From assembly GCA_964636505.1 (NCBI GenBank), contig CAZWRY010000004.1:4985-67449 (forward strand): a stretch of 62,465 nt of DNA, read 5' to 3'. The notes under the pieces are model-generated. The model saw only the letters and a list, made by a program, of their open reading frames with translations, was not told the origin of the DNA and searched no databases. Made by a program: the position numbers and the translations under genes. This DNA comes from an uncultured Bdellovibrionales bacterium. Its GTDB lineage: Bacteria > Patescibacteriota > Minisyncoccia > Moranbacterales > UBA2206. Shown in pieces: positions 31,101 through 50,705 of this stretch. Each line of letters starts with the position of its first letter. Positions within the stretch are counted from its first letter, which is position 1.

Positions 31101-31148
31101 GAAGGTGAAACATCTTTGGAGGAAGTAGAGAGAGTAACAGAACTTTAA
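28110..31148 (+). CDS. Type IV pilus/T2SS assembly ATPase with two tandem PilB/GspE modules
   Basis: GPTGSGKTTTLY, EDPIEY, GEIRD and LSTIHTN each occur twice, with Cys clusters in both halves. Confidence 0.93.
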   Translation: MVKVVKTNPAQATPTWQDKKTKQTQTVISKLRHKSEEEEASLFAAKLDLPYIDTNLIPVSNESVRTILEEDSKRFNVVAIQKDGKHVALASTDPTKKETADFIARMQKENRWEMKVFVISHYNLEKIQEKYKTISFADILSELSINLSDSELEKSGQYLKDLVALKEKIYTLSTTEILNVIMGGSYKLDASDIHLEPQEKDLRLRYRIDGVLHDVMTLPLEFHRSIVSRIKMMSGMKLNLRDIAQDGTFDIRMKEKKVAIRVSIIPGNFGESVVMRLLDPSSIQVALENLGIRGLAFEEINKKIHAPNGVILTTGPTGSGKTTTLYAIINKLNDPATKIITIEDPIEYEVKGVSQTQVEKSRGYDFAGGLRAIVRQDPDVILVGEIRDDETAEIAVQSALTGHLVLSTIHTNSAIGTIPRLIEMGIKPTLIPPSINCLIGQRLVRKLCPHCKEEYIPAKESLESLKKMLSIISPKAKVEIPKEITKLYRPKGCPKCNNLGYKGRIGIFEVLTINEEIEKIIIEMGSETDISLAALESGMITMLQDGILKSIEGITSIEEVKEVTGEGEYLQDLYEKLMSQTLGKGIWITPEAYQKARENISDFKKLQEVIDGSGVKEINKIIFAAATLLGTGDIHIEPGAENVHIRFRIDGILQTIVNIPLTDYPNLLGEIKILSNVKTEVRQGVVDSRFAIQFDEEIKDVKERSVDVRVSIILGGYGETVVMRLLSKATQELDVKKLGIRQQNLDKIIHEVSKPNGVFLNTGPTGSGKTTTLYSIINFVNKPEIKIITVEDPIEYQIEGILQTPVNDKEGYTFSTALRSLLRQNPDIMMIGEIRDDETAQIAVQSALTGHLVLSTIHTNNAAGAVQRMLNMGVSSSDIASSVNAFMAQRLVRKLCDCKKEVELTPEEKTKIEEVLKTISPKSGIEIPKIDRVWKPQGCEKCNHIGYKGRTTVSEVFVIDKDLQNLISQQAITSELNEKAVENGMITMVQDGILKVLEGETSLEEVERVTEL

Positions 31149-33345: not shown

Positions 33346-35025
33346 TTGGAAATAAGGAGGGCCCCAAAAAGCAAAACTAAAAAATTGTTTCTTTTTTTGG
33401 CATTGCCAATTTTTTTGACGGTGTTTTTTGTTACTGATAAAAAAGTTTTGGCAACTGAACATTCTGTAATTATAACTAAAGTTTTATACAACCCGGCCGG
33501 AAGCGACAATAAAACTGATCCCGAGTCTTTTGAGAGCATTGTTTTAAAAAATACTTCCAGCAACAGCGTTGACATAAGCACTTGGGAAATAAGACTGGGC
33601 ACCTATTTTTCTCTTTCAAAAATAATCACGCCGGTTCCGGCCGGGAAAACCTTAACTATTTATTTAGGAACAGGATCTGACAGCAATTTGGACTTTACAG
33701 AAACAACGGAAGCCGCTCTGTTCGTAAATAAAAGTGGCAGCCAATTAGGAGACAAAAAAGGCGAAATTTCACTCTACAAAAGCCCTTCGCACACCAAAGA
33801 TATGTTAGTGGACTATGTTGCCTATGGAAACAAAAGCACTTCTACAAACTACGAGCAAGCCTTGCTGGCCAAGCTTTGGGCGATTGATGATTTCGCCCCC
33901 TTGGTGGAAGAAGATTGTTTCATTGAATTGGAGGAAAAAATAAAAAATAACTCTTCTGACTGGAAATCCAATTGCCCAGAGAAAAAAGAAGAAGAATCCG
34001 GGCCTATTAAGATTTCTTTGGATGATAAAATATACGAAAACATTTTTGCAGATTTTAAAATTTCAGGCCTTAGCCAAAGCGCTAAGGTTGTTTGGACATT
34101 TGGAGATAACCATAAAAGTTATAAGCAAAAAACACGACACAAGTACAACACAGCTGGAACCTATGCCGCCAGCGTTAAATATCCCAGCGGCAACCAAGAA
34201 GTAATTGAAAATTTCACCGTCATTGTTAAAAAAATTCCTCATCCGGAAGTAAAAATCATCTCCATTAATGCCAATCCCGCCGGAAAAGACGCGGACAATG
34301 AAACCATTATCTTGCAAAACAAATCCAAAAAGAAAGTTAATTTAAAGGGCTGGAGCATTGCTACTGGATGGAAAAAACTAGTCAACCACTCAATTACCAA
34401 AGATTTTGAAATAAAAAAAGGCAAAGAAAAAGAAATTACTCGAGAATTTTCCCTCTTTACACTAAACAACAAAAAGTCTGAAGTGGAACTGCGCTATCCC
34501 GACGGCAAGATAGCGGACAGCATAAAGTATAATAAGAAAAAAGAAACCGTTATTGAAGGAGAGATTTATCAAAAAGAAAAAGGTAAAAAATGGAAATGGG
34601 TTGCGCCTCCAAAAACGGCTTCCTTAGCTAAAAATACTGTCATAGATAAAAAAGATACTGAAAATATTAGTCTTCCGGAAAACAAATCCCTTCCTTTTAA
34701 CTTACCTCAAGAAATAAAGATTGAACCAGAAATAGACACAAAAGAAAACCAAAAAACTTCTAAAGAATTGCTCGGACACTTCTCCCCAAGAAAAAACCAA
34801 AAGCAAAACATTGAAAAGCAACTTTTGAGCTTTAATGATTCTAAGGCTAATCCAAAATTTACCCAAAAATTAAAGTCCTGGGAACAAGGCTTTGTTTTTG
34901 GCACTTCAATAACAAAAAATGCTCGCCCAAAAAACGATGAAGCTTTTCCAGAACACATTCTAAAGAGCTATTTTTACAAAATAAATTTATATTTAAACGA
35001 ATTTATCTTAAAACTTCAGAATTAA
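33346..35025 (+). CDS. Secreted lamin-tail-domain / PKD-domain protein
   Basis: ITKVLYNPAGSD..ESIVLKN; WTFGD..HKY..GTY; ISINANPAGKDADNETIILQN. Confidence 0.72.
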   Translation: MEIRRAPKSKTKKLFLFLALPIFLTVFFVTDKKVLATEHSVIITKVLYNPAGSDNKTDPESFESIVLKNTSSNSVDISTWEIRLGTYFSLSKIITPVPAGKTLTIYLGTGSDSNLDFTETTEAALFVNKSGSQLGDKKGEISLYKSPSHTKDMLVDYVAYGNKSTSTNYEQALLAKLWAIDDFAPLVEEDCFIELEEKIKNNSSDWKSNCPEKKEEESGPIKISLDDKIYENIFADFKISGLSQSAKVVWTFGDNHKSYKQKTRHKYNTAGTYAASVKYPSGNQEVIENFTVIVKKIPHPEVKIISINANPAGKDADNETIILQNKSKKKVNLKGWSIATGWKKLVNHSITKDFEIKKGKEKEITREFSLFTLNNKKSEVELRYPDGKIADSIKYNKKKETVIEGEIYQKEKGKKWKWVAPPKTASLAKNTVIDKKDTENISLPENKSLPFNLPQEIKIEPEIDTKENQKTSKELLGHFSPRKNQKQNIEKQLLSFNDSKANPKFTQKLKSWEQGFVFGTSITKNARPKNDEAFPEHILKSYFYKINLYLNEFILKLQN

Positions 35026-36588
35026 AACAAAAAGAACTATTAAACTGGCCAAATAAACCGCAAAAATCGGCCATTCTTGATATTTTTTTCTGTTCACAAA
35101 ATAAAATTGAATTAGTCCTAAAAAAACCGAAAGCCAAAAAATAATCTGATTTCCAATCAAAAGTCCGGCAAAAACATAGGCCATTAAAAAGCCGCCTCCG
35201 ATTAAAAGCTTTCCTCTCGCCAAACCCATCAGTACCGGTAAGGTTTTAATTTTTTCTTTTTTATCGCCCTCATAGTCTTTTATGTCAATAAAGTTGATAG
35301 CCAGAAGACAACTGAATAAAAATAATCCGCCCAACAAGAAAAAGTTATCAAATTTTTCTCCGAAGTCCTGAACAAACTTTAAAAAATATAAAATATTAAG
35401 GTTATTTAGACCATTGAAACCGAGAATGATCAGGGCCCACGAGTTTATTAAAATAGGCAATTTAGAAAGAAATGGAATTCTCTTTAAGCGCAGTGGAGGC
35501 ATAGAATAAAGAAAGTAATTTCCTATGCAAAACAATATTAAAAAGAAAACCTTAAAATTCACTGCCAATGCATAAGCCAAGGCTAGACACAAGAAAATCC
35601 AAGCCAGTTTTTTATAATCACTCAAGGAAATTACTGAACTTACCAATGGCCTGTCCTTGTTGCAAATTTTATCAATTTCAATGTCCGCCATGTTGTTCGT
35701 TATGGCGGAAAAAATTCCGGCAAAGAGAATGCTGATGAAAATAAACGGAATATAGAAAATATTTTCTTCACTTATAATCGGCTGGTTTTTTATTTCCAAA
35801 ACCCAAATGAAGCCCAAAACAAACATCAGCCAAAAATGCAATAGCCTCATGAGTCTGATGTCTTTGACCATACTCCAAAAAAAGGCCTTATTTCCAAGAA
35901 AAGCCAGGATGATTAGCCAGAGAAAACCCAAAAGCAGATAAAAATTATTAAAAAGAGTTTCCGAATACTTAAAAGGCAAATTAAGCCAATCAAAAAATAT
36001 TTTCATAAAGTAAGGACTGAGTGCGTATAAAAAAATTATCGTATAAATCAAAATGGTTCCAAAAATAATTTTAAACCAGCTTAGTCCTTTAACATAAAAA
36101 TATATTGCGATTCCGACAAGGACCAGGAAAATTTCTATTTTTAATCCGGGTGAAACCCCAAACTCTTGAAATTTACCAAAAAAGGTAACAAACCTTTCAA
36201 TAAGCGTTCCGAAGCTGCCATGATATTCAGGCATTAAATAGGTAATATGGTTTCCCTTCCCTCCTGTAATAATCAAATCTATAATCGGTCCCACAATTAA
36301 GACCACAAAACTAGAAAAAACCAGTTTAAATAAGGCTGAGATTCTTTCTTTGGTTAAAAAATAAAAAACAGTTACAAGGGTTAGCCCCAATATAGTATAA
36401 GACAAATAAAAATGCAGCAGCATTGATTCTTTAATCCAGGTGTTGTTGGAAAAAAACTCTATAAAATTTCTAAGCGTAACTGCTGCTAAAAAAGTAAAAA
36501 GAGCGTACCAAATCGGCAGTCTCGGATCTTCTAGTGCGCTAATGATTTTTTTGGCTAAAAATAGCCCCTTTTCAATAATTTTTTTCAT
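35008..36588 (-). CDS. UbiA-family prenyltransferase with extra N-terminal membrane domain
   Basis: NNMADIEIDKICNKDRPL and DIKDYEGD motifs; many TM helices. Confidence 0.8.
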   Translation of the reverse strand: MKKIIEKGLFLAKKIISALEDPRLPIWYALFTFLAAVTLRNFIEFFSNNTWIKESMLLHFYLSYTILGLTLVTVFYFLTKERISALFKLVFSSFVVLIVGPIIDLIITGGKGNHITYLMPEYHGSFGTLIERFVTFFGKFQEFGVSPGLKIEIFLVLVGIAIYFYVKGLSWFKIIFGTILIYTIIFLYALSPYFMKIFFDWLNLPFKYSETLFNNFYLLLGFLWLIILAFLGNKAFFWSMVKDIRLMRLLHFWLMFVLGFIWVLEIKNQPIISEENIFYIPFIFISILFAGIFSAITNNMADIEIDKICNKDRPLVSSVISLSDYKKLAWIFLCLALAYALAVNFKVFFLILFCIGNYFLYSMPPLRLKRIPFLSKLPILINSWALIILGFNGLNNLNILYFLKFVQDFGEKFDNFFLLGGLFLFSCLLAINFIDIKDYEGDKKEKIKTLPVLMGLARGKLLIGGGFLMAYVFAGLLIGNQIIFWLSVFLGLIQFYFVNRKKYQEWPIFAVYLASLIVLFVLILKF

Positions 36589-38090: not shown

Positions 38091-38744
38091 ATGGAAAACA
38101 TAAGCCCTTTAGTTGATCTTTTCATAAGACAAGGTGTTCCCCTGGAAACCGTTGTTTTAATTTTAATGTTTCCAATTATCGCAACTTTAATTGTTTTCTT
38201 TCGCCAAGTTTTAGGCATTAAAGCTTTTGGCATCTATACACCTTTAATCATCACTTTTGCTTTTTTGGCGGCTCATGATTTGCGCTATGGAATTGCCATT
38301 TTTATTTCGGTAATTCTTGTTGGCATGGTTACGCGTTTTTTACTTAAGCCCTTGCGCCTCCTTTACTTGCCGCGCGTAGCTATCATGCTCTCGGTTGTTG
38401 CTGCGGTCATGTTGGTCTTTTTGGCTTTTAGCGGTAGCCTGCGCAGAACAGGACTTGCCGCCGTTTCCATTTTCCCAATTTTAATTATGATAACTTTGGT
38501 AGAAAAATTTATCACCATCCAAATTGAAAAAGGCAACAAGGCCGCTGTGGTTCTGGCCATTGAAACCTTGTTCATTTCCATTATTGGTTATTTTGTTGCC
38601 AGTTGGAATTTTTTAATTCAATTTTTAGTTTCTTATCCCTGGATCGTTCTTCTTTTTCTTCCTATTAATATTGTTTTGGGGAAATGGACGGGACTTAGGC
38701 TTTCTGAATATTTTCGCTTCAAAGAAGTGATGAAAAAATTATAA
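38091..38744 (+). CDS. 7TM protein of the inactive-transglutaminase-associated family (membrane part only)
   Basis: FRQVLGIKAFGIYTP, LYLPRVA, FPILIM..EKF, GKWTGLRLSEYFRF. Confidence 0.82.
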   Translation: MENISPLVDLFIRQGVPLETVVLILMFPIIATLIVFFRQVLGIKAFGIYTPLIITFAFLAAHDLRYGIAIFISVILVGMVTRFLLKPLRLLYLPRVAIMLSVVAAVMLVFLAFSGSLRRTGLAAVSIFPILIMITLVEKFITIQIEKGNKAAVVLAIETLFISIIGYFVASWNFLIQFLVSYPWIVLLFLPINIVLGKWTGLRLSEYFRFKEVMKKL

Positions 38745-38765
38745 CTTTTCTCTTAATTTATCGCT

Positions 38766-40175
38766 ATGTTTGATTTTTTTAAAAAAAGAAGCGGGATACT
38801 GGGAATGAATGCCAGAAATCTTGACTATATTCGTCCTTACAACCTGAAAAGTGCCAAAAGACTCGCTGATAACAAACTTTTAAGTAAAAAAAAATTGGCT
38901 AAAAGCGGCATTTCCGTTTCGCCGTTGCTTTTTAAAATACGCAGCCGCGAAGAATTGGAAAGTTTTGACTGGAGCAAGCTTCCGGAAAGTTTCGCACTAA
39001 AACCTAACCGCGGATTTGGAGGAGAAGGCATCATTGTTGTCTATGGAAAAAAGAAAAACTCCGAAAATACCTGGATAAAAGCCGACAGATCAAAGGTTAC
39101 CGTTGAAGATTTAAAAAACCATATTCAAAATATCTTGGATGGAGCTTTTTCTTTGGCCAATACTCTGGACATCGCCTTTTTTGAAGAAAGAGTTAGGCTA
39201 AGCAAGTCTTTTAAGCCCTACACCTTTAAGGGCATTCCGGATATTCGGGTCATTGTTTTTAATAAAGTGCCTGTCATGGCCATGCTCCGACTTCCAACTA
39301 AAGAGTCTGGCGGCAAAGCCAATTTACATCAGGGCGCCATTGGAGTTGGCATTGATATGGCTTCCGGCATTACTACTTCGGCCGTACAGGGAAAAAACAA
39401 ATTAATTGAAAAAATGCCAGATTCAAGGATGTCCACCAGTGGGTTTAAGATACCTTTTTGGAAGGATATTTTGCTCTTAGCTGTCCGCGCTCAAGAGATA
39501 TCCAAGCTGGGTTATTTGGGCGTTGACATTGCTATTGACAAAGAGAGAGGTCCGCTTATTTTGGAATTAAATGCCCGCCCAGGACTTTCCATTCAAATAG
39601 CCAACTTGGCCGGCCTAAAAGAGCGCCTGAAAAGAGTTAGCGGCCTTAAAATCAAATCTCTTGAACGTGGCGTTCGCGTCGGCATGGATCTTTTTGGAGG
39701 AGAAATTGAAGAGGAGGTTGAAGATATCTCCGGACGCAAAGTAATCGGACCGATAGAAAAAATCAAGCTAATCGGAAAAGAAGGAAAAGAAATTGAAGTT
39801 GAAGCTAAAATTGATACAGGAGCTTTTTCTTCCTCTATTGACATAAATCTTGCTAAAGAGCTAGGCTTTCAAGAAATTATAGAAAAATTTTCTGAACTAG
39901 ACTTGTCAGAATATAAATTATTACCAGAAAATGAAGCTGTTATTAAAAAAGATGTGTTGGAAAAATATAAAAACAAGATTCCAGACCTAGAAGATGTGGC
40001 CGTTGTTTTTTCATCACACGGAGCATCAATTCGCCCAATAGTTAAGATTAACTTTATCATGGATAATCTGGAAATATTTTCCAGAATGAACATAATAGAC
40101 AGAAGTAATCTGAAATGTCCCGTTATTATCGGCAGAAAAAACCTGGAAAAATTCTTAATTGATGTAAACAAATAA
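38766..40175 (+). CDS. Alpha-L-glutamate ligase-like ATP-grasp fused to a retropepsin-like protease
   Basis: GMNARN..N, KPNRGFGGEG, PDIRVIV, ANLHQGA, LELNARPGLSIQIAN; C-terminal KIDTGAFSSSID..IIGRKNL. Confidence 0.85.
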   Translation: MFDFFKKRSGILGMNARNLDYIRPYNLKSAKRLADNKLLSKKKLAKSGISVSPLLFKIRSREELESFDWSKLPESFALKPNRGFGGEGIIVVYGKKKNSENTWIKADRSKVTVEDLKNHIQNILDGAFSLANTLDIAFFEERVRLSKSFKPYTFKGIPDIRVIVFNKVPVMAMLRLPTKESGGKANLHQGAIGVGIDMASGITTSAVQGKNKLIEKMPDSRMSTSGFKIPFWKDILLLAVRAQEISKLGYLGVDIAIDKERGPLILELNARPGLSIQIANLAGLKERLKRVSGLKIKSLERGVRVGMDLFGGEIEEEVEDISGRKVIGPIEKIKLIGKEGKEIEVEAKIDTGAFSSSIDINLAKELGFQEIIEKFSELDLSEYKLLPENEAVIKKDVLEKYKNKIPDLEDVAVVFSSHGASIRPIVKINFIMDNLEIFSRMNIIDRSNLKCPVIIGRKNLEKFLIDVNK

Positions 40176-40180
40176 GGCAT

Positions 40181-41194
40181 ATGAAAATATTAAAGAGTTT
40201 AAAAAAAATTACCCTAAAAAACTTGAATGAGATAGACTTTAAACATAAAAAAAGCACGGCAGAAGAACTGCTAAAAGCTTCTCTAAAGAAAAAAGTTGAG
40301 GTTTTTAGGGTTTTTGAAGACAGGTTTATTTTTATTTTAAAAAAGAAAGACAAGCTTTTTTGGATTAGTAAAGCGCTAACCTCAAAAGCAAACCCCGTAG
40401 GTATTAGCATCGCGCGAGACAAGAAGTTGACCACAAGACTGCTTTATGAAATTGGTTATCCGGTCGCCCCCAGCAGCATGATTTCCGATATTTCAGAATT
40501 AAAAGAAGCCATAAAAAAAATAAAATTTCCAGTTGTTATAAAGCCCTTGAGGTCTTTGGGGGGGAAGGGTGTTACCGTCAACATAAGAACAAAAAACCTT
40601 TTGTTTGATTCCTTTAGAATTGCTAAAAAGTTTGATAAAAAAATATTGGTTGAAAAACACATAGAAGGAGATTATTACAGGCTAACCTATATAGCTAACG
40701 GTTTTTATGCCGCAACCAAAAACATGCCTGCGTATATAGTTGGAGACGGGAAAAAAACAGCCAAACAATTAATTGACAGTGAAAATAAAAATAATAAAGA
40801 AAGAAAGGACAAGGGAAGATTAAAAAAAATAAAGATTTCTGAAAAAACAAAAAGGTTTTTAGCTACTTACGGATACACTTTTAGCTCTATAATACCTAAA
40901 AGCAAAAAAATACCTCTTTGTTTTAGCGGTTTTGATGGCGGAGAATATATTGATGTTACAAAAAACGTTCATCCTTATTTTATTAAAATGGCAAGTAGAA
41001 TTTCTAAAATATTGGACCTTCCCATAATAGGAGTTGATATTATAACAAAAACTATCAGCAAGCCACTTAATAAAACAGGCGGAGTGATTTTGGAAATAAA
41101 TGGCACATACCCCGACATTCAATTTCACAATATGCCAACACAAGGAAAGCCAATAAATTTGGCGCCAAAGCTAATTGATTGTTTATTTGAATAA
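40181..41194 (+). CDS. ATP-grasp ligase resembling the cyanophycin synthetase/GshAB ATP-grasp domain
   Basis: DKKLT, PVVIKP..GGKGV, YIVGDGKKT, GVDII, LEING. Confidence 0.78.
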   Translation: MKILKSLKKITLKNLNEIDFKHKKSTAEELLKASLKKKVEVFRVFEDRFIFILKKKDKLFWISKALTSKANPVGISIARDKKLTTRLLYEIGYPVAPSSMISDISELKEAIKKIKFPVVIKPLRSLGGKGVTVNIRTKNLLFDSFRIAKKFDKKILVEKHIEGDYYRLTYIANGFYAATKNMPAYIVGDGKKTAKQLIDSENKNNKERKDKGRLKKIKISEKTKRFLATYGYTFSSIIPKSKKIPLCFSGFDGGEYIDVTKNVHPYFIKMASRISKILDLPIIGVDIITKTISKPLNKTGGVILEINGTYPDIQFHNMPTQGKPINLAPKLIDCLFE

Positions 41195-41215
41195 TTTTTT
41201 AATAAAAACAATTCA

Positions 41216-42097
41216 ATGTCTCCTATAAACTTTTTAATAATAGGCCCTGATAATGAAAACACTTGGGATTTAGTTAATGAAATAAAAAAAAGAAAACATT
41301 CAGTCTTGTCTCTGCCAATAAAAGAAATTTTTTTTGAGTTTTCCAATAAAAAATTTAAGGCCTTTTGGAAAAATAAAGATCTTGATCTTTTTGATATCAT
41401 TCTTTTTAGGGGATATAATGAAAGCTTTATTGAAGCCGGTGTCCTGGCAAAAAAGTTTCTTGACGATAAAAAAACGGTGGTTGATGAGGTTATTGGCAAA
41501 GGATTTATTCCAGGCAAAACATTTGAGGCAAGCCGACTTATTAAAAACAAGCTCCGACATCCAAAAACATTGCAGTGTATTAACAGCTCTATTTGTACAA
41601 GTGTTCTAAAAAAAATATCTTTTCCTATTATAGTAAAGCCCGTCCACGGACAAAAAGGCAAGGATATGCATAAATTTAAAAACATCAAGGAAGCCGAGGT
41701 TTTTTTAAAGAAAAATCCTACAGGCTATTTAATCCAGGAATATTGTAAAATAGACGGGGATATACGTGTTTTTGTTGTAGGAAATAAGGTTTTAGGAGCA
41801 ATAAAAAGATTTGTCATTGATGGAGACTTCCGCTCTAATGCTTCCTTGGGCGCAAAGGCAAAAAAATATCCCGTAGACAAAGAATTGCGAAGATTGTCTG
41901 TTTCTGCAGCAAAAATAATGAAGTATGAAATCGCTGGAGTTGATATTATTAAATATGAGGGAAAATATTTTATCTTAGAAGTTAACTTTGCTCCCCAATG
42001 GCAAAAATTCAAAGAAATTACAGGCATTAATCCGGCAAAAGACATAATCAATTACGCAATAAGAAAATATGAAAAAAATAAAGGTAGGTTTTTTTAA
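41216..42097 (+). CDS. RimK-family ATP-grasp ligase
   Basis: PIIVKP, IQEY, DIRVFVVG, FRSNASLG, GVDII, LEVN. Confidence 0.85.
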   Translation: MSPINFLIIGPDNENTWDLVNEIKKRKHSVLSLPIKEIFFEFSNKKFKAFWKNKDLDLFDIILFRGYNESFIEAGVLAKKFLDDKKTVVDEVIGKGFIPGKTFEASRLIKNKLRHPKTLQCINSSICTSVLKKISFPIIVKPVHGQKGKDMHKFKNIKEAEVFLKKNPTGYLIQEYCKIDGDIRVFVVGNKVLGAIKRFVIDGDFRSNASLGAKAKKYPVDKELRRLSVSAAKIMKYEIAGVDIIKYEGKYFILEVNFAPQWQKFKEITGINPAKDIINYAIRKYEKNKGRFF

Positions 42098-43013
42098 GTC
42101 TCCGCAAGGAGTTTTTACCAAGAAAATAATTAAAAAAATAGAGAAAAAACTCAAAGAAAAAAACTTTATAGAGCTTTATACGGGTTTAGATTTTAGAAAA
42201 GGCCAAGTAATAAACGGTCGGGTCATAGTTGATGGCTTTGATTTAAATAGTCTGGATGTTTATTTTTGGCACGACGCCATAAAGGCGTCTGAATGGGATG
42301 GTGACAATTATTTTTTAAATGTTTTAAGAGCTCTTGAAAACAATTGCCTTGTTATTAATTCAAGTGAGGCAACTCGAACAATTAGCGATAAGTTTTTATC
42401 ACATAACCTTCTCCTTAAAAACCGTTTGCCTGTTGTAGATTTTGCCTTGATTGATTTTAACAGAAGCGCACTAAAAAAAATTTTTGGTCTTTTTGACGGT
42501 TCAATTGTCATTAAGCCAAGGTTTGGAGGTTGGGGAATTGGAGTAGAAAAAATATCTTCACAAAACGAATTGTTTAGCTGGTTCAACAAGACGAAAAAGG
42601 CTAAAAATCCACCGAAGCAAATCTTGATTGAAAAGTATTTTAAAAATGATTTATCAAAATGGATTGCTGTTGTTGTTTTGGGAGAAAAAATTCTTTTTGG
42701 TTATAGAAAAAAAATAACCACCGGTTCTGATTGGAAAATTTACGACCCTCAAAAAAAGGATGGCAAGGGAGCTTATTCTGAATACGTTGATCCTCCTAAA
42801 AAACTCAAAGAGATAGCCCTTGCAGCCAAAAGGGCTGTAAAAAAAGATATTGTGGGATTTGATTTTATTTTTACAAATGAAGGTTATAAGATAGTTGATG
42901 AAAATGGTCGTCCGGGTATTTATAAAAATTGTCTTGCTCAATGTAGGTTAAAAATAGAAGATGAGATTGCTAACCTGATAATCAACAAGGTGCTTTCTAA
43001 AAATAAAACATAG
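42069..43013 (+). CDS. Divergent RimK/LysX-like ATP-grasp protein
   Basis: DKFLS, VIKPRFGGWGIG, IEKY, GFDFI, VDENGRPG. Confidence 0.72.
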   Translation: MKKIKVGFFKSPQGVFTKKIIKKIEKKLKEKNFIELYTGLDFRKGQVINGRVIVDGFDLNSLDVYFWHDAIKASEWDGDNYFLNVLRALENNCLVINSSEATRTISDKFLSHNLLLKNRLPVVDFALIDFNRSALKKIFGLFDGSIVIKPRFGGWGIGVEKISSQNELFSWFNKTKKAKNPPKQILIEKYFKNDLSKWIAVVVLGEKILFGYRKKITTGSDWKIYDPQKKDGKGAYSEYVDPPKKLKEIALAAKRAVKKDIVGFDFIFTNEGYKIVDENGRPGIYKNCLAQCRLKIEDEIANLIINKVLSKNKT

Positions 43014-43052
43014 CTTTCTTGAAATTTTATCTTTTTTAGTTTATAATACGGT

Positions 43053-45569
43053 TTGACCCTTATGCCACACGTTTTTGTTTCATTTAAAGACCTAAAGGCT
43101 GTTTCCAAAAAAAACAAATGGAAGTTTTTTGGAATTTTGGCTGCTTATTTTTGCCTAGCGCTTTTTATTTTTGTTTTGGGCGTTTTTGTTTATTTTTATA
43201 AGGACTTACCTTCTCCGGGAAAAATGAATACTCGCTTTATAGCCGAGTCAACCAAAATATATGACCGGACCGGACAACACATTCTTTATGAGGTTCATGG
43301 AGAAGAAAAAAGAACAATTATTCCTTTTGACAATATTCCAGAAAGCGTCCGCTATGCGACAATTTCTTTGGAAGATCAGGACTTTTATTCCCACCATGGT
43401 ATAAAAATCTCTTCTATTATACGTTCGGCACTTAAAGATATTTTAAAAAGATCGGCCGCACAAGGAGGTTCAACCATAACCCAGCAGTTTGTAAAAAAGG
43501 CTCTTCTAACTGACGAAAAGAAACTTTCCCGCAAAATAAAGGAAGTAATCTTGTCCCTAGAATTAGAAACCAAGTATTCTAAGGATGAAATTTTAGAAAT
43601 GTATCTAAACCAAATCCCTTATGGTTCAAATGCTTATGGAATAGAAGCCGCTGCCCAAACTTTTTTTGGGAAAAACGCTAAAAACCTTACTTTGGATGAA
43701 GCTGCTCTTTTAGCTTCTCTGCCGCAGGCTCCTAGTTATTATTCTCCCAACGGTTCTCATCCTGACGCCTTGAAAGGTCGCCAAGAGTTTGCCCTCAAAA
43801 GAATGGCTGACCTGGGCTACATTACACCAGAACAAGCTACTGAATTTAAGCAGGTTGATGTTTTGGCTAAAATAAAGCCTTTTAGAGAGAAAATTGACGC
43901 TCCACACTTCGTTATGTACATCAAGGAATATCTTGAAAAAACTTACGGAGAACAAGCCGTTGAACAAGGCGGCCTAAAAGTTTATACCACGCTAGACTGG
44001 GATAAACAACAAATTGCTGAAAAGGCAGTTCGTGAAGGAGCAGAATCTAACGCTAAAAAATATGGTGCAAATAATGCTTCTTTAGTTGCTATTGATCCGA
44101 AAAACAGTCAAATTCTAGCCATGGTTGGGTCAAAAGACTATTTTGATAAGACAATTGATGGACAAGTAAATGTGGCTATTCGTGATCGCCAGCCGGGATC
44201 ATCTTTTAAGCCTTATGTTTATTTGACCGCCTTTAAGAAGGGCTACACACCAGAAACGCAGCTTTGGGACGTAGATACCAATTTTGAAACATCTGATGGA
44301 AAAACCTACAACCCAAAGAATTACGATGGGCAAAACAGGGGTCTCTTGCAAATGAAAAACACTTTAGCCATGTCCTTAAATGTGCCTGCCGTTAAAGCTC
44401 TTTACCTGGCTGGAGTCAAAGACTCAATTCAAACAGCTAAAGACATGGGCATAAACACGCTAAACGATCCGGATAAGCTTGGTTTGTCTTTGGTTTTGGG
44501 AGGAGGTGAGGTTAAGTTACTTGAACATACAAATGCTTTTGCCACTCTGGCTAACGGAGGGATTTTTCGCAATAAAACTGCTATTTTAAAAATAACCGAC
44601 GCCAAAGACAATGTTTTGGAAGAATATAAAGCCAGCACCGGCAAAAGAGTTGTGGAAGAAAAATATATTGCTATGCTAGATTATGTTCTATCTACAAATG
44701 ATCTCCGGGCACCCGTTTTTGGAAATAGCAATCCACTTGCTTTTAGCAATCGTCAGGTTGCCGCCAAAACCGGAACAACCAATGAATGGCGCGATGGATG
44801 GACGATGGGCTATACCCCCTCTTTAGCTGTTGGCGTTTGGGCCGGAAACAACAATAACTCGCCCATGGCCAAGGGGGCCGATGGCGTTTATGTTGCCGCA
44901 CCTATCTGGAGATCTTTTATGGAACAAGCTCTAAAAAACTATGCCAACGAAGATTTCCCTAAATATGAAAAAGAAGAAACAGGTAAAGATATTTTGGATG
45001 GAAAAATGGACCCTTTAAAAAAAACCGAGGTCTGTGAAATTAAAAAAGACAAATTTTGCCTGGCTACATCTTCTTGCCCAGATAAAAAAAGAGATGAAAA
45101 AAAGTTTTTTGTCGGACACTCAATTCTTTATTATGTTAACAAAGATGACCCACGAGGCAGCCAACCTAAAAATCCAGGCAGCGACCCTCAGTTTGAAAAC
45201 TGGGAAAAAGCTGTCAAAAAATGGGCTGTTGACCAAAAAGACATAAGCAAAAAAGATGTCCCGTCTGAAAGTTGTAAATCGGAAGATTTTGACGCAGTAA
45301 GCGTATCTGTGTCCATCTCTTCTCCAAACGACGGCGAAACTGTCACAGAAACATCTTTTTCTATTACCGCTAGCGCCTCAGCTGAGGCTGGCATCAAAAA
45401 GATTACTCTTTATATTAATGGCACAGAAATAACATCTTCAAACGACTCCTCTTTAAGTCATGTTTATCCTACCCCAAGCGGCGAAAATGCCTTAGACATC
45501 CGAGTTTCCGCTGAGGATAAACATGGAAACGGCGCCTCAGATTCCATCCGCATAAACACCAAGCTTTAA
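43053..45569 (+). CDS. Class A penicillin-binding protein (PBP1A-type) with C-terminal Ig-like domain
   Basis: EDQDFYSHHG, GGSTITQQ, RKIKE, YLNQIPYG; SSFK, SLN, KTGTT. Confidence 0.95.
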   Translation: MTLMPHVFVSFKDLKAVSKKNKWKFFGILAAYFCLALFIFVLGVFVYFYKDLPSPGKMNTRFIAESTKIYDRTGQHILYEVHGEEKRTIIPFDNIPESVRYATISLEDQDFYSHHGIKISSIIRSALKDILKRSAAQGGSTITQQFVKKALLTDEKKLSRKIKEVILSLELETKYSKDEILEMYLNQIPYGSNAYGIEAAAQTFFGKNAKNLTLDEAALLASLPQAPSYYSPNGSHPDALKGRQEFALKRMADLGYITPEQATEFKQVDVLAKIKPFREKIDAPHFVMYIKEYLEKTYGEQAVEQGGLKVYTTLDWDKQQIAEKAVREGAESNAKKYGANNASLVAIDPKNSQILAMVGSKDYFDKTIDGQVNVAIRDRQPGSSFKPYVYLTAFKKGYTPETQLWDVDTNFETSDGKTYNPKNYDGQNRGLLQMKNTLAMSLNVPAVKALYLAGVKDSIQTAKDMGINTLNDPDKLGLSLVLGGGEVKLLEHTNAFATLANGGIFRNKTAILKITDAKDNVLEEYKASTGKRVVEEKYIAMLDYVLSTNDLRAPVFGNSNPLAFSNRQVAAKTGTTNEWRDGWTMGYTPSLAVGVWAGNNNNSPMAKGADGVYVAAPIWRSFMEQALKNYANEDFPKYEKEETGKDILDGKMDPLKKTEVCEIKKDKFCLATSSCPDKKRDEKKFFVGHSILYYVNKDDPRGSQPKNPGSDPQFENWEKAVKKWAVDQKDISKKDVPSESCKSEDFDAVSVSVSISSPNDGETVTETSFSITASASAEAGIKKITLYINGTEITSSNDSSLSHVYPTPSGENALDIRVSAEDKHGNGASDSIRINTKL

Positions 45570-45576
45570 ATTTTTC

Positions 45577-45605
45577 AAAAAAAGCGTTCTTAAAACGCTT
45601 TTTTT
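45577..45605. terminator. Bidirectional terminator
   Basis: aaaaaaagcgtt-cttaa-aacgcttttttt between convergent genes. Confidence 0.85.
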
Positions 45606-45637
45606 GTTTGTTTATTTTGACACTTTTTTTGGCTCTT

Positions 45638-47161: not shown

Positions 47162-48319
47162 TTAGTTTTTAATCGGCATCACAATATAGATATAGTCTTC
47201 CATTATCTCTCCTTTTTTTTCACTCACTTCTTTTATCGCAACAGGCGATGTTTCATTATTAATTAAAATAGCTACCGATCTACTTGCAACAGAATTAAGT
47301 CCATCTAATAAATATTTTGGATTAAAAATAACCCTGTGGTTTTGTCCAACAATTTCAGCTTCAATTTCTGATGTATTTTCTCCAATTTCCGTGTTTTTAG
47401 CGCCAATAACTATTTTTCTTTGGTTTAAATTTGTTTCTAAAAAAATTTCACCCGCTTTACCTGAAGCAAAAACACTTGCCATTTTTACCGCACCCTGGAT
47501 AACTCCTTTTTCCAAAACAACTCTTGTTTGAAAGCTTTTTGGTAAGATGTGTTTATATTCAGGATATTTGCCGTTTATTAACCTTGAAACAATTTGTATG
47601 CCATTAATTTCAAAAAATATCTGACCATCTTCAATAGTTATAATCACATCACCCACCTCATTTGAAACCACCCTTAAAATTTCAGTAAGCGTGCTGGCTG
47701 GAATTATAAGGTTATTTATGTTTTTTATAAAAAGGCTGTAAATTTCCGTATTTTTATTTTTCTGTTCTAATTTAATCCTGTTTTCTGATAACCTAAAACT
47801 GTCCGTAGCCGCAAAAAAAACATTATCCTCTGTTAAAATAATGTTTACCCCAGTTAATTCCTGTCTAGTTTCATTAAAAGCTACACTAGGAAGAGTTTTT
47901 AAAATTATATTCTTTAAAATTTCACTTGAAACTAAAAATAGAAAATCTTCTTTTTTGGGTGGAATTAAGGGAAAGTCGTCTGCTAATAATCCCTTTATTA
48001 CAGCCTTTAATGACCCGCTAATTACCTTTAGCTCTTGGTTCACAGCTTCCAGTGTTATGTTTTCATTTTCTATTGGTAAATTATTAACAAAACCACTTAT
48101 TGTTTTTGCTGGTATGGTTATTTTTCCTGTTTTTTCTATTTTAGCGCCTACTTTTGAAATAATGCCTATTTCCAGATTGGTAGCTGAGATTTTTAAAATA
48201 TTATTTTCAGTTTCAAATAAAATATTATTTAATATAGGTAGTGTTGTTTGTTTAGAAACAATATGCTCCGAATTAAAAATAGCTTTTTTAAAATTTTCTT
48301 TAGTACAAATTAATTTCAT
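47162..48319 (-). CDS. dnaN: DNA polymerase III beta clamp
   Basis: LPILNNI, ATNLE, ATDSFRL, SRLINGKYP, VMPI. Confidence 0.97.
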   Translation of the reverse strand: MKLICTKENFKKAIFNSEHIVSKQTTLPILNNILFETENNILKISATNLEIGIISKVGAKIEKTGKITIPAKTISGFVNNLPIENENITLEAVNQELKVISGSLKAVIKGLLADDFPLIPPKKEDFLFLVSSEILKNIILKTLPSVAFNETRQELTGVNIILTEDNVFFAATDSFRLSENRIKLEQKNKNTEIYSLFIKNINNLIIPASTLTEILRVVSNEVGDVIITIEDGQIFFEINGIQIVSRLINGKYPEYKHILPKSFQTRVVLEKGVIQGAVKMASVFASGKAGEIFLETNLNQRKIVIGAKNTEIGENTSEIEAEIVGQNHRVIFNPKYLLDGLNSVASRSVAILINNETSPVAIKEVSEKKGEIMEDYIYIVMPIKN

Positions 48320-48565: not shown

Positions 48566-49951
48566 TTAACTTATTTTATACAACTGTTCTTTTAGGTGGG
48601 TGATTTCTTCTATTAATTTTTCATTAAACTCAAGCTCTTTTTTTATTTTTTCAAAAGCGTGCATGGCAGTGGTGTGATCTCTTCCTCCTAATTTTTCACC
48701 AATCCCAGGGTAAGAATAATTAAGCTCACTGCGCATAAGGTAAATAGCTACTTGTCTTGGTTTTACGATTTCTTTTTTTCTACCCTTAGTAATAAGGTCA
48801 TCCGGGCTGATGTCATAAAAATCAGAAACAACTCTAAATATGTGTTTATGGCTAATTCCCTTCTTTTTTCCGCTAGATACCAATTCTGATAAACAAGAAG
48901 AAACAAAAGGAAGGGTTAGCTTCTCATTGGACAACTGAGAAGAGACAAAAACTCTATTTAGAGCGCCTTCCAGCTCCCGAATATTATTAACAATATTTGA
49001 GGCGATAAACTCAAGGGCGGATAATTCTATGTCTAGGCCTAATTCGTCGGTTTTTTTTCTTAATATTGCCATGCGGGTTTCAAAATCAGCCCGGGAAACA
49101 TCAGCAATCATACCCCCCTCAAAACGCGATCTTAGTCTTTCTTCCAGTGTGGGGATGGCTTTTGGCGGCCGATCACTACTAAGAACGATTTGCTTATTGA
49201 GCTGATAAAGATGGTTAAAAATGTGAAAAAACTCTTCTTGTGTTTTTTCTTTTCCTGAAAGAAACTGAATATCATCAATAATAATTAAGTCTATTTTTTG
49301 GTAATATTCCTTAAATTCTTTTATTTTTTGGTTTTTGATAGAATCAATTAACTCGCCGGTAAATCTTTCCGATGTTATATATCTTACCCTTGTTTCTGGG
49401 TTTTTTCGTAAAACCTCATTACCGATTGATTGCAAAAGATGGGTTTTTCCTAGCCCAACTCCTCCGTAAATAAACAGGGGGTTGTAAATCTTGCCTAAAT
49501 TTTGAGAAACAACATAACAGGCCGCTCTTGCCAGTTCATTGCTGCCTCCAACAACAAAATTTTCAAAGGTATATTTTGGATTTAAGTTGTTTTCTTGGCT
49601 TATTTCAGCCACTACTGATTTATTTGGAGTTAAATTCGGAGTTTTTAGGGCTTTTTGCGGTGGTAAAACAGCATCAATGGAAGACTCCTTTTTAGGAATA
49701 AAAGAGTTGGTAATAATGGCGCAAGAAACATCCTTTATGTCGCTCTGAATATTGCGCAAAGCACGTAAAATATATATTTTATACTTGTTTTCAAGCCATT
49801 CTTTAGCAAAGCCATTAGGAACGCCAATACAAATACGACCCTCTTTATTCGTCAAAATACAGGTATTCTTAAACCAGGTAATAAAATTAGCCTTGGAAAT
49901 AGAAAGCTCAATTTCCCCTAAGGCTGCTCGCCAAAGATCTTCATTGGTCAT
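48566..49951 (-). CDS. dnaA: Chromosomal replication initiator DnaA
   Basis: YNPLFIYGGVGLGKTHL, IDDIQF, RELEGAL, GGRDHTT. Confidence 0.98.
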   Translation of the reverse strand: MTNEDLWRAALGEIELSISKANFITWFKNTCILTNKEGRICIGVPNGFAKEWLENKYKIYILRALRNIQSDIKDVSCAIITNSFIPKKESSIDAVLPPQKALKTPNLTPNKSVVAEISQENNLNPKYTFENFVVGGSNELARAACYVVSQNLGKIYNPLFIYGGVGLGKTHLLQSIGNEVLRKNPETRVRYITSERFTGELIDSIKNQKIKEFKEYYQKIDLIIIDDIQFLSGKEKTQEEFFHIFNHLYQLNKQIVLSSDRPPKAIPTLEERLRSRFEGGMIADVSRADFETRMAILRKKTDELGLDIELSALEFIASNIVNNIRELEGALNRVFVSSQLSNEKLTLPFVSSCLSELVSSGKKKGISHKHIFRVVSDFYDISPDDLITKGRKKEIVKPRQVAIYLMRSELNYSYPGIGEKLGGRDHTTAMHAFEKIKKELEFNEKLIEEITHLKEQLYKIS

Positions 49952-50193
49952 AAAAATAAAAAAGAAATTGCTTAGCTTGTAGTAAAAAGTATATCAAAAA
50001 GGATCAGGTATGGCTAGGTCCTGAAAGAGGATAAAGATGTTGATAATTTGTTGACAACTAACCTATTTTATAAAAAAAGCCAATTAAAAAAACTGGCCTA
50101 GAAAAAAGAATAATTGACTATTTGGGCAATAGTTGATAAGCTTTTAAATAGTTAAATCAGGTTAATAAACAGATAAAATTTTTACAAAAGCTT

Positions 50194-50331
50194 ATGAGCC
50201 AAACATATAAACCAAAAAGCACCAGGAGAAAAAAAAGACATGGTTTTAGAAAAAGAAACCAAACAAGTGACGGAAAGAAAGTCTTAAAAAGAAGGAGACA
50301 AAAAGGTCGAAAAAAGCTGACAACCGTATAG
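50194..50331 (+). CDS. rpmH: 50S ribosomal protein L34 (not in the ORF track)
   Basis: Manual translation: [45 protein letters not shown]. Confidence 0.95.
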
Positions 50332-50378
50332 TTTTTTGAGATTTAAAAAGAACAGCAAAAATATTTTTTTAAAGCTTA

Positions 50379-50705
50379 ATGTTAAAAAAATTAAGAAAAA
50401 AGGAAGAATTTGAAAAAGTCTATAAAAAAGGAATAACTTTTTTGTACGGGAATATTGTTATTAGATTTTTAAAAAATGGATTGGGTTTTTCGCGAATCGG
50501 AGTTGTCGTTAGCGGAAGATTTTCAAAAAAAGCGGTAGAAAGAAATAAAATAAAAAGACAGCTAAGATATATTTTTCAAAAAGAAAGGTTGTTGTTTGAA
50601 AAAAACATTGATATCGTTGTGCTGCCCAAAAAGGGAAAAACAAACTTTCGTTTGTTGCGAGAAAATACAGAAAAAGCCCTTAAAAAAGCCAAAATAATCA
50701 CTTAA
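50379..50705 (+). CDS. rnpA: Ribonuclease P protein
   Basis: RIGVVVS..KKAVERNKIKR; follows rpmH. Confidence 0.93.
   Translation: MLKKLRKKEEFEKVYKKGITFLYGNIVIRFLKNGLGFSRIGVVVSGRFSKKAVERNKIKRQLRYIFQKERLLFEKNIDIVVLPKKGKTNFRLLRENTEKALKKAKIIT

Follow-up and report, generated by a model that had tools for sequence, protein, structure and literature searches.

The DNA examined here is a 62,465-nucleotide (nt) stretch (hereafter, the window) of contig CAZWRY010000004.1 from an uncultured member of the Patescibacteriota, in which five adjacent genes, designated g1 to g5, encode a seven-transmembrane (7TM) protein (g1), an ATP-grasp ligase fused to a retropepsin-like protease (g2), and three further ATP-grasp ligases (g3, g4, and g5; Table 1). 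The 7TM protein and the ligase::protease fusion form a fixed core in at least 41 lineages, almost always with accessory ligases behind it, and the ligase set is a recombination cassette exchanged among lineages, with its left breakpoint inside the protease domain. With about even confidence, the locus may be regarded as the Patescibacteria form of an RloBCA/RimBK-type system, that is, a membrane-associated system that would build and trim glutamate (Glu)-rich alpha-peptides and whose accessory ligases would vary the product. The multi-ligase peptide system with a built-in trimming protease, put forward in the original prediction for this DNA, remains the best reading.

The trio of 7TM protein, ATP-grasp ligase, and protease had reportedly been predicted by Iyer et al. 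in 2009. Its description as a mere prediction, retained until now for this DNA, has been overtaken, as RloABC was characterised in 2025 (PMC12239564) and a RimBK protease–ligase hybrid is known (PMC11957791). The trio (as RloABC) and the hybrid (as RimBK) are thus established, and what is added here is a Patescibacteria-wide fused module with a shuffled ligase cassette. A system thought largely proteobacterial (96% of the RloB matches fall in Proteobacteria; PMC12239564) thereby gains a major uncultured radiation among its hosts, where it forms a core gene set next to the probable replication origin. The searchable literature on Patescibacteria and the Candidate Phyla Radiation yielded no account of this cluster, and the full five-gene arrangement is not characterised anywhere in the searchable literature.

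Conserved core of a 7TM protein and a ligase–protease fusion

All five open reading frames (ORFs) are real and intact, and hidden Markov model (HMM) E-values as small as those obtained across five adjacent co-oriented ORFs lie far beyond chance. The domain assignments first proposed for the five genes were all borne out. For g2, PF14397/TIGR02291 matched residues 7–294 (E = 1.8e-89), and TIGR02291, which describes the RloC type, was by far the best match, over its full length and at 299.9 bits (cut-off 314.2); the ligase domain scored 51 bits against the RimK family model TIGR00768 (cut-off 143). The catalytic DTGA motif of the protease occupies residues 350–353 (nt 39813–39824), and D350-T351-G352-A353 together with the ligase residues K79, R161, D254, E267, and N269 were invariant in 42 g2 homologues. 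More generally, the families conserve the active-site residues of ligases and protease alike. The AlphaFold2 model of g2 had a mean predicted local distance difference test (pLDDT) score of 80, falling below 50 at residues 314–325, and Foldseek related its N-terminal domain to RimK/ArgX/LysX and its C-terminal domain to a phage acid protease (TM-score 0.75, target-normalised) and the HIV and HTLV proteases.

The protease domain alone scored above the PF05618 cut-off (34 vs 27 bits). A PDB sequence search with whole g2 gave no match, but a profile of the protease domain matched entries 9G58, 9G59, and 2PMA (E = 5e-10 to 3.5e-6), with the K-x-DTGA, R-P, and D-R motifs aligned. Two protease arginines are spaced 23 residues apart both in g2 and in the aligned RloA-like structures 9G58/9G59, and K348, R423, and R446 of g2, unchanged in all protease types that were compared, align with the RloA residues that coordinate polyglutamate. 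In P. aeruginosa, RloA cuts runs of at least eight Glu; its K46, R114, and R137 coordinate polyglutamate, and both arginines are needed in vitro as well as in vivo (PMC12239564). The retention of these three residues as K348, R423, and R446 suggests that the substrate of the g2 protease is most likely acidic and Glu-rich. In addition, the lack of a signal peptide indicates that g2 is cytoplasmic.

Between the two domains of g2 lies the acidic linker DLFGGEIEEEVEDISGRK, which was almost invariant across all 26 diverse lineages aligned and better kept than the adjoining folded parts. Its longest contiguous Glu run is only three residues, and self-cleavage of the linker is therefore not implied, given that RimB needs five to six and RloA eight. 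The linker nevertheless looks like the presumed Glu-rich substrate of the protease, and a role as a pseudo-substrate, tether, or primer-like element is possible.

The g1 protein matched PF14402 (7TM_transglut) with 112.7 bits (E = 2.6e-32), and the RloB model with 86 bits (cut-off 900) at positions 308–507 of 508 only. As only the last 200 RloB positions were matched, g1 represents the RloB-like 7TM module alone and lacks the transglutaminase domain outside the membrane. Its seven hydrophobic helices, with a conserved and strongly basic C-terminal tail (GLRLSEYxRF), suggest a predicted topology with the N-terminus outside and the C-terminus inside. Across 33 orthologues there were 43 invariant columns, and the invariant polar residues lay mostly on the predicted cytoplasmic loops and the tail. 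A lenient Pfam scan of g1 for transporter or CapC-like hints returned nothing credible.

The closest known counterpart is the P. aeruginosa rloABC locus, which encodes the 7TM-transglutaminase RloB, the ATP-grasp protein RloC, and secreted RloA proteases, and which has been studied by genetics and structure (PMC12239564). Both systems combine a PF14402 7TM protein, an ATP-grasp ligase (of the TIGR02291 type, with g2 just under the cut-off of the model), and a PF05618 protease in adjacent and co-oriented genes, and both proteases have a DTG active site with the polyglutamate-coordinating lysine and two arginines. The differences are that the 7TM protein of the window lacks the periplasmic inactive-transglutaminase domain; that RloA is separate and secreted, whereas the protease here is the C-terminal domain of a cytoplasmic ligase, with an acidic linker and no signal peptide; that the core here has one to four additional ATP-grasp ligases behind it; and that the host here belongs to the Patescibacteria, with scores under the NCBIfam equivalog cut-offs. 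The expectation that such trios are usually unfused and carry a transglutaminase domain thus fits the proteobacterial RloABC (PMC12239564), and the fused, cytoplasmic, transglutaminase-less form is the standard in Patescibacteria. In one surveyed locus (L012:1392-2945), the 7TM protein comes with a signal peptide, and an N-terminal PKD domain takes the position of the inactive transglutaminase of RloB; a transglutaminase domain had been expected in this long protein and was not what was found. The occurrence of PKD where proteobacterial RloB has transglutaminase suggests that the outward-facing module of the 7TM protein is interchangeable.

The second counterpart is the RimB-RimK system with the RimBK hybrid of Desulfotalea psychrophila (PMC11957791); there, a cytoplasmic retropepsin-like endopeptidase likewise acts with an alpha-L-glutamate ligase and is fused to it in RimBK. 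RimB trims oligo-Glu and stimulates the poly-alpha-Glu synthesis of RimK, and the natural RimB-RimK hybrid is proteolytically active (PMC11957791). The trimming of oligo-Glu and modulation of the ligase by the protease, and the presence here of g4 as a bona fide RimK-family member, add to the likeness. By contrast, the protease is N-terminal in RimBK and follows the ligase here, the fused ligase here is RloC-like and not of the RimK type, a 7TM partner is always present here, and ribosomal protein S6 is not established as a substrate of the window's system.

Accessory ATP-grasp ligases

Three ligases of different kinds follow the fusion. The g3 protein matched the cyanophycin synthetase model at positions 160–471 of 862 (247 bits, cut-off 850), the C-terminal half of GshAB (135 bits), and the ATP-grasp half of the enzyme for synthesis of the osmoprotectant N-acetylglutaminylglutamine (120 bits); its best PDB matches were CphA1, CphA2, and GshAB. 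Its nearest counterparts among known systems are the G domain of CphA1 and the ATP-grasp half of GshAB/GshF. It spans the whole G domain (Gcore, Glid, and G-omega) and has no N or M domain. K81, K121, R167, D286, E305, and N307 are invariant in the g3 family, and the first five correspond at near-equal spacing to K220, K261, R309, D431, and E450 of TeCphA1. The G domain of CphA1 joins an amino acid to the C-terminal backbone carboxylate of a peptide (PMC9427784), and such an addition would fit the role proposed for g3. CphA1 and CphA2 differ from g3 in having the N domain (the polymer anchor) and the M domain (the Mur-ligase-like arginine ligase). Moreover, the residues recognising the incoming aspartate (Asp) have been lost (G456 to D312 and R458 to Q314; PGFRMH of CphA1 to PDIQFH), suggesting that g3 probably adds a residue other than Asp. 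Identification of g3 as a cyanophycin synthetase was rejected on the missing N and M domains and the changed Asp-recognition residues.

The g4 protein scored above the TIGR00768 cut-off (147.2 vs 143.4 bits), had Pseudomonas RimK as its best PDB match, and retains family-invariant canonical RimK residues (K101, K141, R184, R206, D243, E255, and N257). It fell below the cut-off of the ribosomal protein S6--L-glutamate ligase equivalog NF007764 (72 vs 331 bits). The g5 protein scored only 81 bits against the RimK family and belongs to a rare family, with 15 representatives at E<=1e-30 among 1.84 billion proteins. Its invariant residues comprise the ATP lysines K108 and K149, the hinge glutamate E188, D265, and the D277-x-N279 metal site. 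The proposed loss of the DxR arginine and replacement of ExN by DEN were confirmed: W198-I-A stands at the D-I-R position of RimK and g4, a lysine (K214/K223) occurs in the region of the second (FRSN) arginine, and D277-E-N279 replaces E-x-N, all conserved in the family. As the replacements are conserved family-wide, we infer that g5 is an altered enzyme and not a decayed one. The catalytic residues of the accessory ligases, whose loss would have spoken against an active system, are thus kept in g3 and g4, whereas the canonical ones are replaced in g5. Against Ddl and pseudomurein-ligase models, g3 to g5 scored at best 16–41 bits (cut-offs 243 and above). None of the PADLOC defence models was matched by any of the five proteins, and with zero matches a defence-system reading was rejected.

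Distribution across Patescibacteria

To place the window among its relatives, 65 loci (numbered with the prefix L) were gathered and collapsed at 95% g2 identity into 41 lineages, and the core pair of 7TM protein and fusion was present in these 41 dereplicated lineages. The fusion has thousands of homologues of about 465–480 amino acids (aa) and 67–77% identity, the named ones being Moranbacteria, Parcubacteria, or Patescibacteria, and the string yebC, ruvC, 7TM, fusion is nearly universal. One to four more ATP-grasp genes came directly after the fusion in 33 of the 35 lineages whose downstream sequence reached 1 kb or more, the exceptions being L012 and L018. The architecture is therefore not peculiar to this genome.

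Several kinds of genes occupy the cassette. Its CphA-G-like ligases fall into two subtypes of about 316 and 337 aa, which are 23–29% identical to each other, and the other ligases are RimK-like, 318-aa TTL/ATPgrasp_ST-like, of the g5 family, or of two further RimK-like groups. Further genes encode MATCAP/QEGLA-type metallopeptidases (PF08014), YdjC, glycosyltransferases, and, once, an AbiEii toxin. The g3-g4-g5-PBP1A order of the window recurs in two other lineages, L052/L053 and L056/L057, which answers the question, left open in the original prediction, of whether the extra ligases accompany the trio elsewhere. In L054/L055, g4 and g5 come after the other CphA-G subtype; L058 has that subtype and g4; and of the three RimK-like genes of L060, one is g5-like.

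It might be supposed that the five genes are not one system, g4 being an ordinary S6-glutamylating RimK and g3 and g5 chance neighbours of the 7TM/fusion pair. In favour of such a supposition, g4 lies above the RimK family threshold, E. coli RimK acts alone (PMC11957791), and the compact genomes of Patescibacteria make tight spacing common. Its probability is nevertheless judged to be very small, because ATP-grasp genes directly follow the fusion in nearly all lineages with downstream sequence; every g4 homologue whose context was looked up, down to 37% identity, lies in this locus (two homologues, of 49% and 37% identity, were looked up independently); the S6-ligase equivalog score of g4 is far under its cut-off; the 29-nt g4/g5 overlap is found in three lineages (the window, L054, and L056); and the swap unit described below couples a protease part to the slot-1 ligase.

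MATCAP/QEGLA genes (PF08014, TIGR02421) stand beside ligases at L006:14375-15691, L007:12461-13804, L011:9808-11131 (apparently split into two ORFs), L013:11515-12879, and L017:8522-10138, and these peptidases are a second type of 'eraser' beside the retropepsin. By analogy only, the opposition of TTL/TTLL ligases and MATCAP at tubulin tails is similar, in that several ATP-grasp ligases of differing specificity are opposed by peptidases; related cassettes hold PF08014 peptidases and TTL-like ATP-grasp genes, whereas the window itself has no MATCAP-like gene. A stand-alone retropepsin-like paralogue without a signal peptide was seen directly downstream of the fusion in L012 (4332-4802), L017 (7131-7664), and L042 (5298-5831). 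In L012 and L017 the protease gene is not split: the fusion is kept and the stand-alone protease is additional. As retropepsins act as dimers, heterodimers of the stand-alone paralogue with the fused protease domain are conceivable.

Genes for AbiEii toxin (the nucleotidyltransferase of a type IV toxin-antitoxin system) lie inside the cassette of L006 (16444-17160) and just upstream of yebC in L058 (1369-2088), which hints that the region tolerates insertions. Seven entries (L002, L003, L004, L014, L018, L019, and L022) are labelled 'uncultured Bdellovibrionales' or 'uncultured Gammaproteobacteria' despite a typical Patescibacteria locus, and these labels of public metagenome-assembled genomes are probably taxonomic mislabels.

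Recombination of the ligase cassette

The closest relatives by flanking genes, L019, L028, and L003 (7TM protein 83–86% and PBP1A 82–83% identical), carry a single 316-aa ligase in place of the three of the window. Against these relatives, g2 is 80–100% identical in aa sequence up to residue 360 and 19–33% identical over residues 361–469; at the DNA level the identity is 70–88% up to about 39,860 and 33–53% beyond, with the break just after DTGA. The more distant L052, L002, and L004 are 57–73% identical to the window in the same C-terminal stretch (361–469). L054 and the window are unrelated over the C-terminal part of the protease and g3, from at least 39,830 (the start of the L054 contig) to about 41,200; from the beginning of g4 onwards, over g5 and PBP1A, they are 70–90% identical. 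The unit of exchange therefore couples the part of the protease that bears its specificity (helical insert, flap, and later strands) to the slot-1 ligase. Recombination among relatives is thus well supported, and a breakpoint is documented that splits an enzyme domain, separating its catalytic motif from the elements that bind substrate.

Identity of the protease C-terminal part was correlated with that of the CphA-G-like ligase, given the g2 ligase domain, over 21 lineages (partial Mantel rho 0.39, permutation p ~0.0005), and the reverse partial correlation over these lineages was not significant. Strict co-adaptation of protease type and ligase set was only partly supported, as the same g3-g4-g5 set was found with two C-terminal types of protease.

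The proposed AT-richness of the three ligases holds as far as the numbers go, with a GC content of 0.32 each against a mean of 0.367 for the genes of the window (standard deviation (sd) 0.039; z about -1.1) and z values of -0.8 to -1.6 for GC at third codon positions (GC3). The signal is mild and inside the range of the window, in which dnaN is lower still (z -1.8 for GC and -2.8 for GC3), and is no sign of foreign origin; transfer from another organism was accordingly rejected on composition. Where present, the g3–g5 orthologues are 57–80% identical to the genes of the window, similar to the flanks. The mild composition and the flank-like conservation of the ligases point to turnover among related lineages and not to distant import. 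The three ligases might alternatively be a recently imported island for a secondary metabolite or for defence, a reading to which the lowest probability is given here. It could draw on GC and GC3 values about 1 to 1.6 sd below the window mean in all three genes, on the patchy presence among close relatives, and on the AbiEii toxin gene in the L006 cassette; it is opposed by the more AT-rich core genes such as dnaN, by orthologue identities in line with the flanks, by the fact that all relatives are Patescibacteria with the locus at the same chromosomal site next to oriC, and by the PADLOC result.

Proposed function and alternative explanations

Under the RloBCA/RimBK-type interpretation, each ligase would convert a carboxylate into an activated acyl-phosphate and then join one amino acid to it; by analogy with RimK and the cyanophycin synthetase G domain, this carboxylate would most likely be the alpha-carboxylate at the C-terminus of a growing peptide. 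The RloC-like domain of g2 and g4 would add Glu, g3 and g5 would add other residues or work at other positions, and the product would be a short Glu-rich alpha-peptide, either free or on an acceptor. The fused protease would cut the chain, thereby setting its length or recycling the peptide, and because retropepsins must dimerise, the g2 fusion is proposed to work at least as a dimer. The 7TM protein may dock the machinery via its conserved cytoplasmic face and present or pass the product to the envelope, and swaps of the ligases and of the specificity-bearing part of the protease would change the product lineage by lineage. A functional link to PBP1A is possible.

The behaviour of the Pseudomonas system is of interest in this respect. 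The triple protease mutant died in low-osmolarity medium and showed misshapen cells and sensitivity to cell-wall (beta-lactam) antibiotics, and deletion of rloB or rloC suppressed the defects of protease loss (PMC12239564), which means that RloB and RloC make what RloA removes. The authors suggested a link to peptidoglycan and raised polyglutamate homeostasis as a possibility (PMC12239564). A mutant of an RloB homologue in Shewanella over-produces vesicles.

Several observations weigh against the RloBCA/RimBK-type interpretation. The fusion falls just under the TIGR02291 cut-off (299.9 vs 314.2 bits), and the locus is far under the RloA and RloB equivalog cut-offs. The protease is secreted in Pseudomonas and cytoplasmic here, so the logic of the system may differ. 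The enzyme activities of the g1–g5 proteins are read from sequence; the amino-acid specificity of g3 would not be predictable from CphA1, whose Asp-recognition residues it lacks, and g5, which lacks both canonical arginines, could be non-catalytic or have another chemistry. The role of the 7TM partner is pure inference, the single-sequence structure model of g1 being unusable (pLDDT 65, predicted template modelling score 0.39). Acidic C-terminal tails, as candidates for tagged proteins or acceptors, were found in none of the window ORFs. Furthermore, the covariation of protease type and ligase set is imperfect, and its signal may reflect physical linkage instead of co-adaptation.

The most serious competing explanation is that the module modifies a peptidoglycan precursor, the ligases adding side-chain or bridge residues to a lipid- or nucleotide-linked stem peptide at the cytoplasmic face; polymerisation and cross-linking of the altered precursor would fall to penicillin-binding protein 1A (PBP1A), and the ligase sets would give lineage-specific cross-bridges. 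PBP1A follows the cassette directly in all Moranbacteria-type loci and in L060, where the whole 7TM–fusion–ligases–PBP1A block is intact although both outer flanks differ, so the adjacency to PBP1A pointed out earlier is a conserved one. ATP-grasp enzymes acting on stem peptides do exist, namely Ddl and the D-aspartate ligase of Enterococcus faecium. The shape, hypo-osmotic death, and beta-lactam sensitivity of the Pseudomonas rlo mutants, the peptidoglycan suggestion of their authors, and the Shewanella vesicles point in the same direction. On the other hand, the protease keeps polyglutamate-binding residues, while stem peptides have no oligo-Glu run; Paceibacteria-type loci possess the module and extra ligases without PBP1A within 10 kb downstream; a promoter-like site separates g5 from PBP1A; the Ddl and pseudomurein-ligase matches are marginal; and conserved gene order near oriC could alone explain the adjacency. 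For the modification of peptidoglycan stems, as raised in the original prediction, the support is positional (adjacency to PBP1A); a peptidoglycan connection at large is backed by position and phenotypes, but the data do not demand it, and it fits poorly with an oligo-Glu protease. On balance, this explanation is considered unlikely, with some real chance of being correct.

Another explanation, which overlaps with the RloBCA/RimBK-type interpretation and differs from it in having no acceptor and in its storage or osmotic role, is a free poly- or oligo-amino acid, such as poly-alpha-glutamate or a cyanophycin-like reserve or osmolyte, exported via the 7TM protein or stored, and mobilised by the protease. 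RimK and RimB do make free poly-alpha-Glu in vitro and in vivo (PMC11957791), g3 comes nearest to cyanophycin synthetase, with a further match to the N-acetylglutaminylglutamine enzyme half, and Rlo is tied to osmotic stress, with polyglutamate homeostasis raised by its authors. The missing N and M domains and Asp-recognition residues of g3 argue against it, and storage would leave both the shuffling of ligases between close relatives and the constant presence of the 7TM partner unexplained; it is therefore held to be improbable.

A bolder and distinctly unlikely possibility is a recombination-shuffled 'peptide code' of the envelope, in which combinations of ligases, each with a matched protease half, would write lineage-specific hetero-peptides onto an envelope component and give episymbionts a variable surface, the linker being a pseudo-substrate or self-processing site. 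Were it true, the target would be either the peptidoglycan precursor destined for PBP1A or a surface polymer on its way through the 7TM protein, the variable surface would serve host recognition or phage evasion by episymbiotic Patescibacteria, and the Glu-rich linker would echo the release of retroviral proteases from a polyprotein.

RloABC and RimBK bear on cell shape, osmotic survival, beta-lactam sensitivity, biofilm formation, and vesicle production, and their product and substrate are still sought. The Patescibacteria locus described here offers three handles on this question. First, ligase and protease are in one cytoplasmic protein, which would be simpler to reconstitute. Second, at least six ATP-grasp and two peptidase families in one slot constitute a natural combinatorial experiment, and comparing the products would reveal what is built. 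Third, the conserved PBP1A neighbourhood points to where the acceptor may be sought.

Locus layout and genomic neighbourhood

As first described, the five genes are co-oriented and tightly spaced, all on the forward strand with gaps of 5–21 nt and one overlap: g1–g2, g2–g3, and g3–g4 are separated by 21, 5, and 21 nt, respectively, and g4 and g5 share 29 nt. PBP1A begins 39 nt past the end of g5. Upstream, yebC and ruvC are co-oriented with g1–g5, and ruvC ends 23 nt before g1. On the forward strand from yebC on, the first strong terminator-like hairpin occurs only past PBP1A. Promoter-like sites in the region were as numerous as expected from shuffled sequence, and the site in the g5–PBP1A gap is thus weak evidence.

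Table 1. Coordinates of the genes, domains, and signals of the locus within the window
Feature	Coordinates	Strand	Remarks
g1, 7TM protein	38091..38744	+	217 aa; PF14402 match
g2, ATP-grasp ligase::protease fusion	38766..40175	+	469 aa; PF14397/TIGR02291 + PF05618
ATP-grasp domain of g2, residues 17-292	38814..39641	+	PF14397, 233.6 bits
Acidic interdomain linker of g2, residues 308-325	39687..39740	+	near-invariant; predicted disordered
Retropepsin-like protease domain of g2, residues 327-468	39744..40169	+	PF05618
Left recombination breakpoint of cassette, inside protease domain (~codons 359-368)	39840..39870	+	identity drop vs relatives
g3, stand-alone CphA-G-like ATP-grasp ligase, cassette slot 1	40181..41194	+	337 aa
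g4, RimK-family ATP-grasp ligase	41216..42097	+	293 aa; TIGR00768
g5, divergent RimK-like ATP-grasp ligase, rare family	42069..43013	+	314 aa
Promoter-like TTGAAA, 17 nt, TATAAT in g5-PBP1A gap	43019..43047	+	11/12 matches
PBP1A, bifunctional transglycosylase/transpeptidase; right border of cassette	43053..45569	+	TIGR02074, 515 bits
Terminator-like hairpin, 13 pairs + T tract, 3' of PBP1A	45576..45606	+	

Further downstream, dnaN (47162-48319, reverse strand), dnaA (48566-49951, reverse strand), and rnpA (50379-50705, forward strand) are found, with an AT-rich gap at 49952-50378 among them, and the cumulative GC skew has its minimum at about 47–50 kb of the window. This gene arrangement, the AT-rich gap, and the skew minimum place the g1–g5 locus about 5 kb from the probable replication origin. 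The order PBP1A-DciA-...-DnaN-DnaA was also seen in L054 and L056, and in L063 as far as dnaN, where the fetched stretch ends.

Upstream of yebC, a gene for an LTD-domain surface protein (33346-35025, forward strand), which is kept at this place in L056 and L058, converges with an 18-nt overlap on a reverse-strand gene (35008-36588) for a 526-aa polytopic membrane protein whose C-terminal half is a UbiA-type prenyltransferase. Moreover, a 1012-aa protein encoded at 28110-31148 contains two separate stretches matching GspE/PilB models (type IV pilus/type II secretion ATPase), and seems to have arisen by tandem duplication or fusion of the ATPase.

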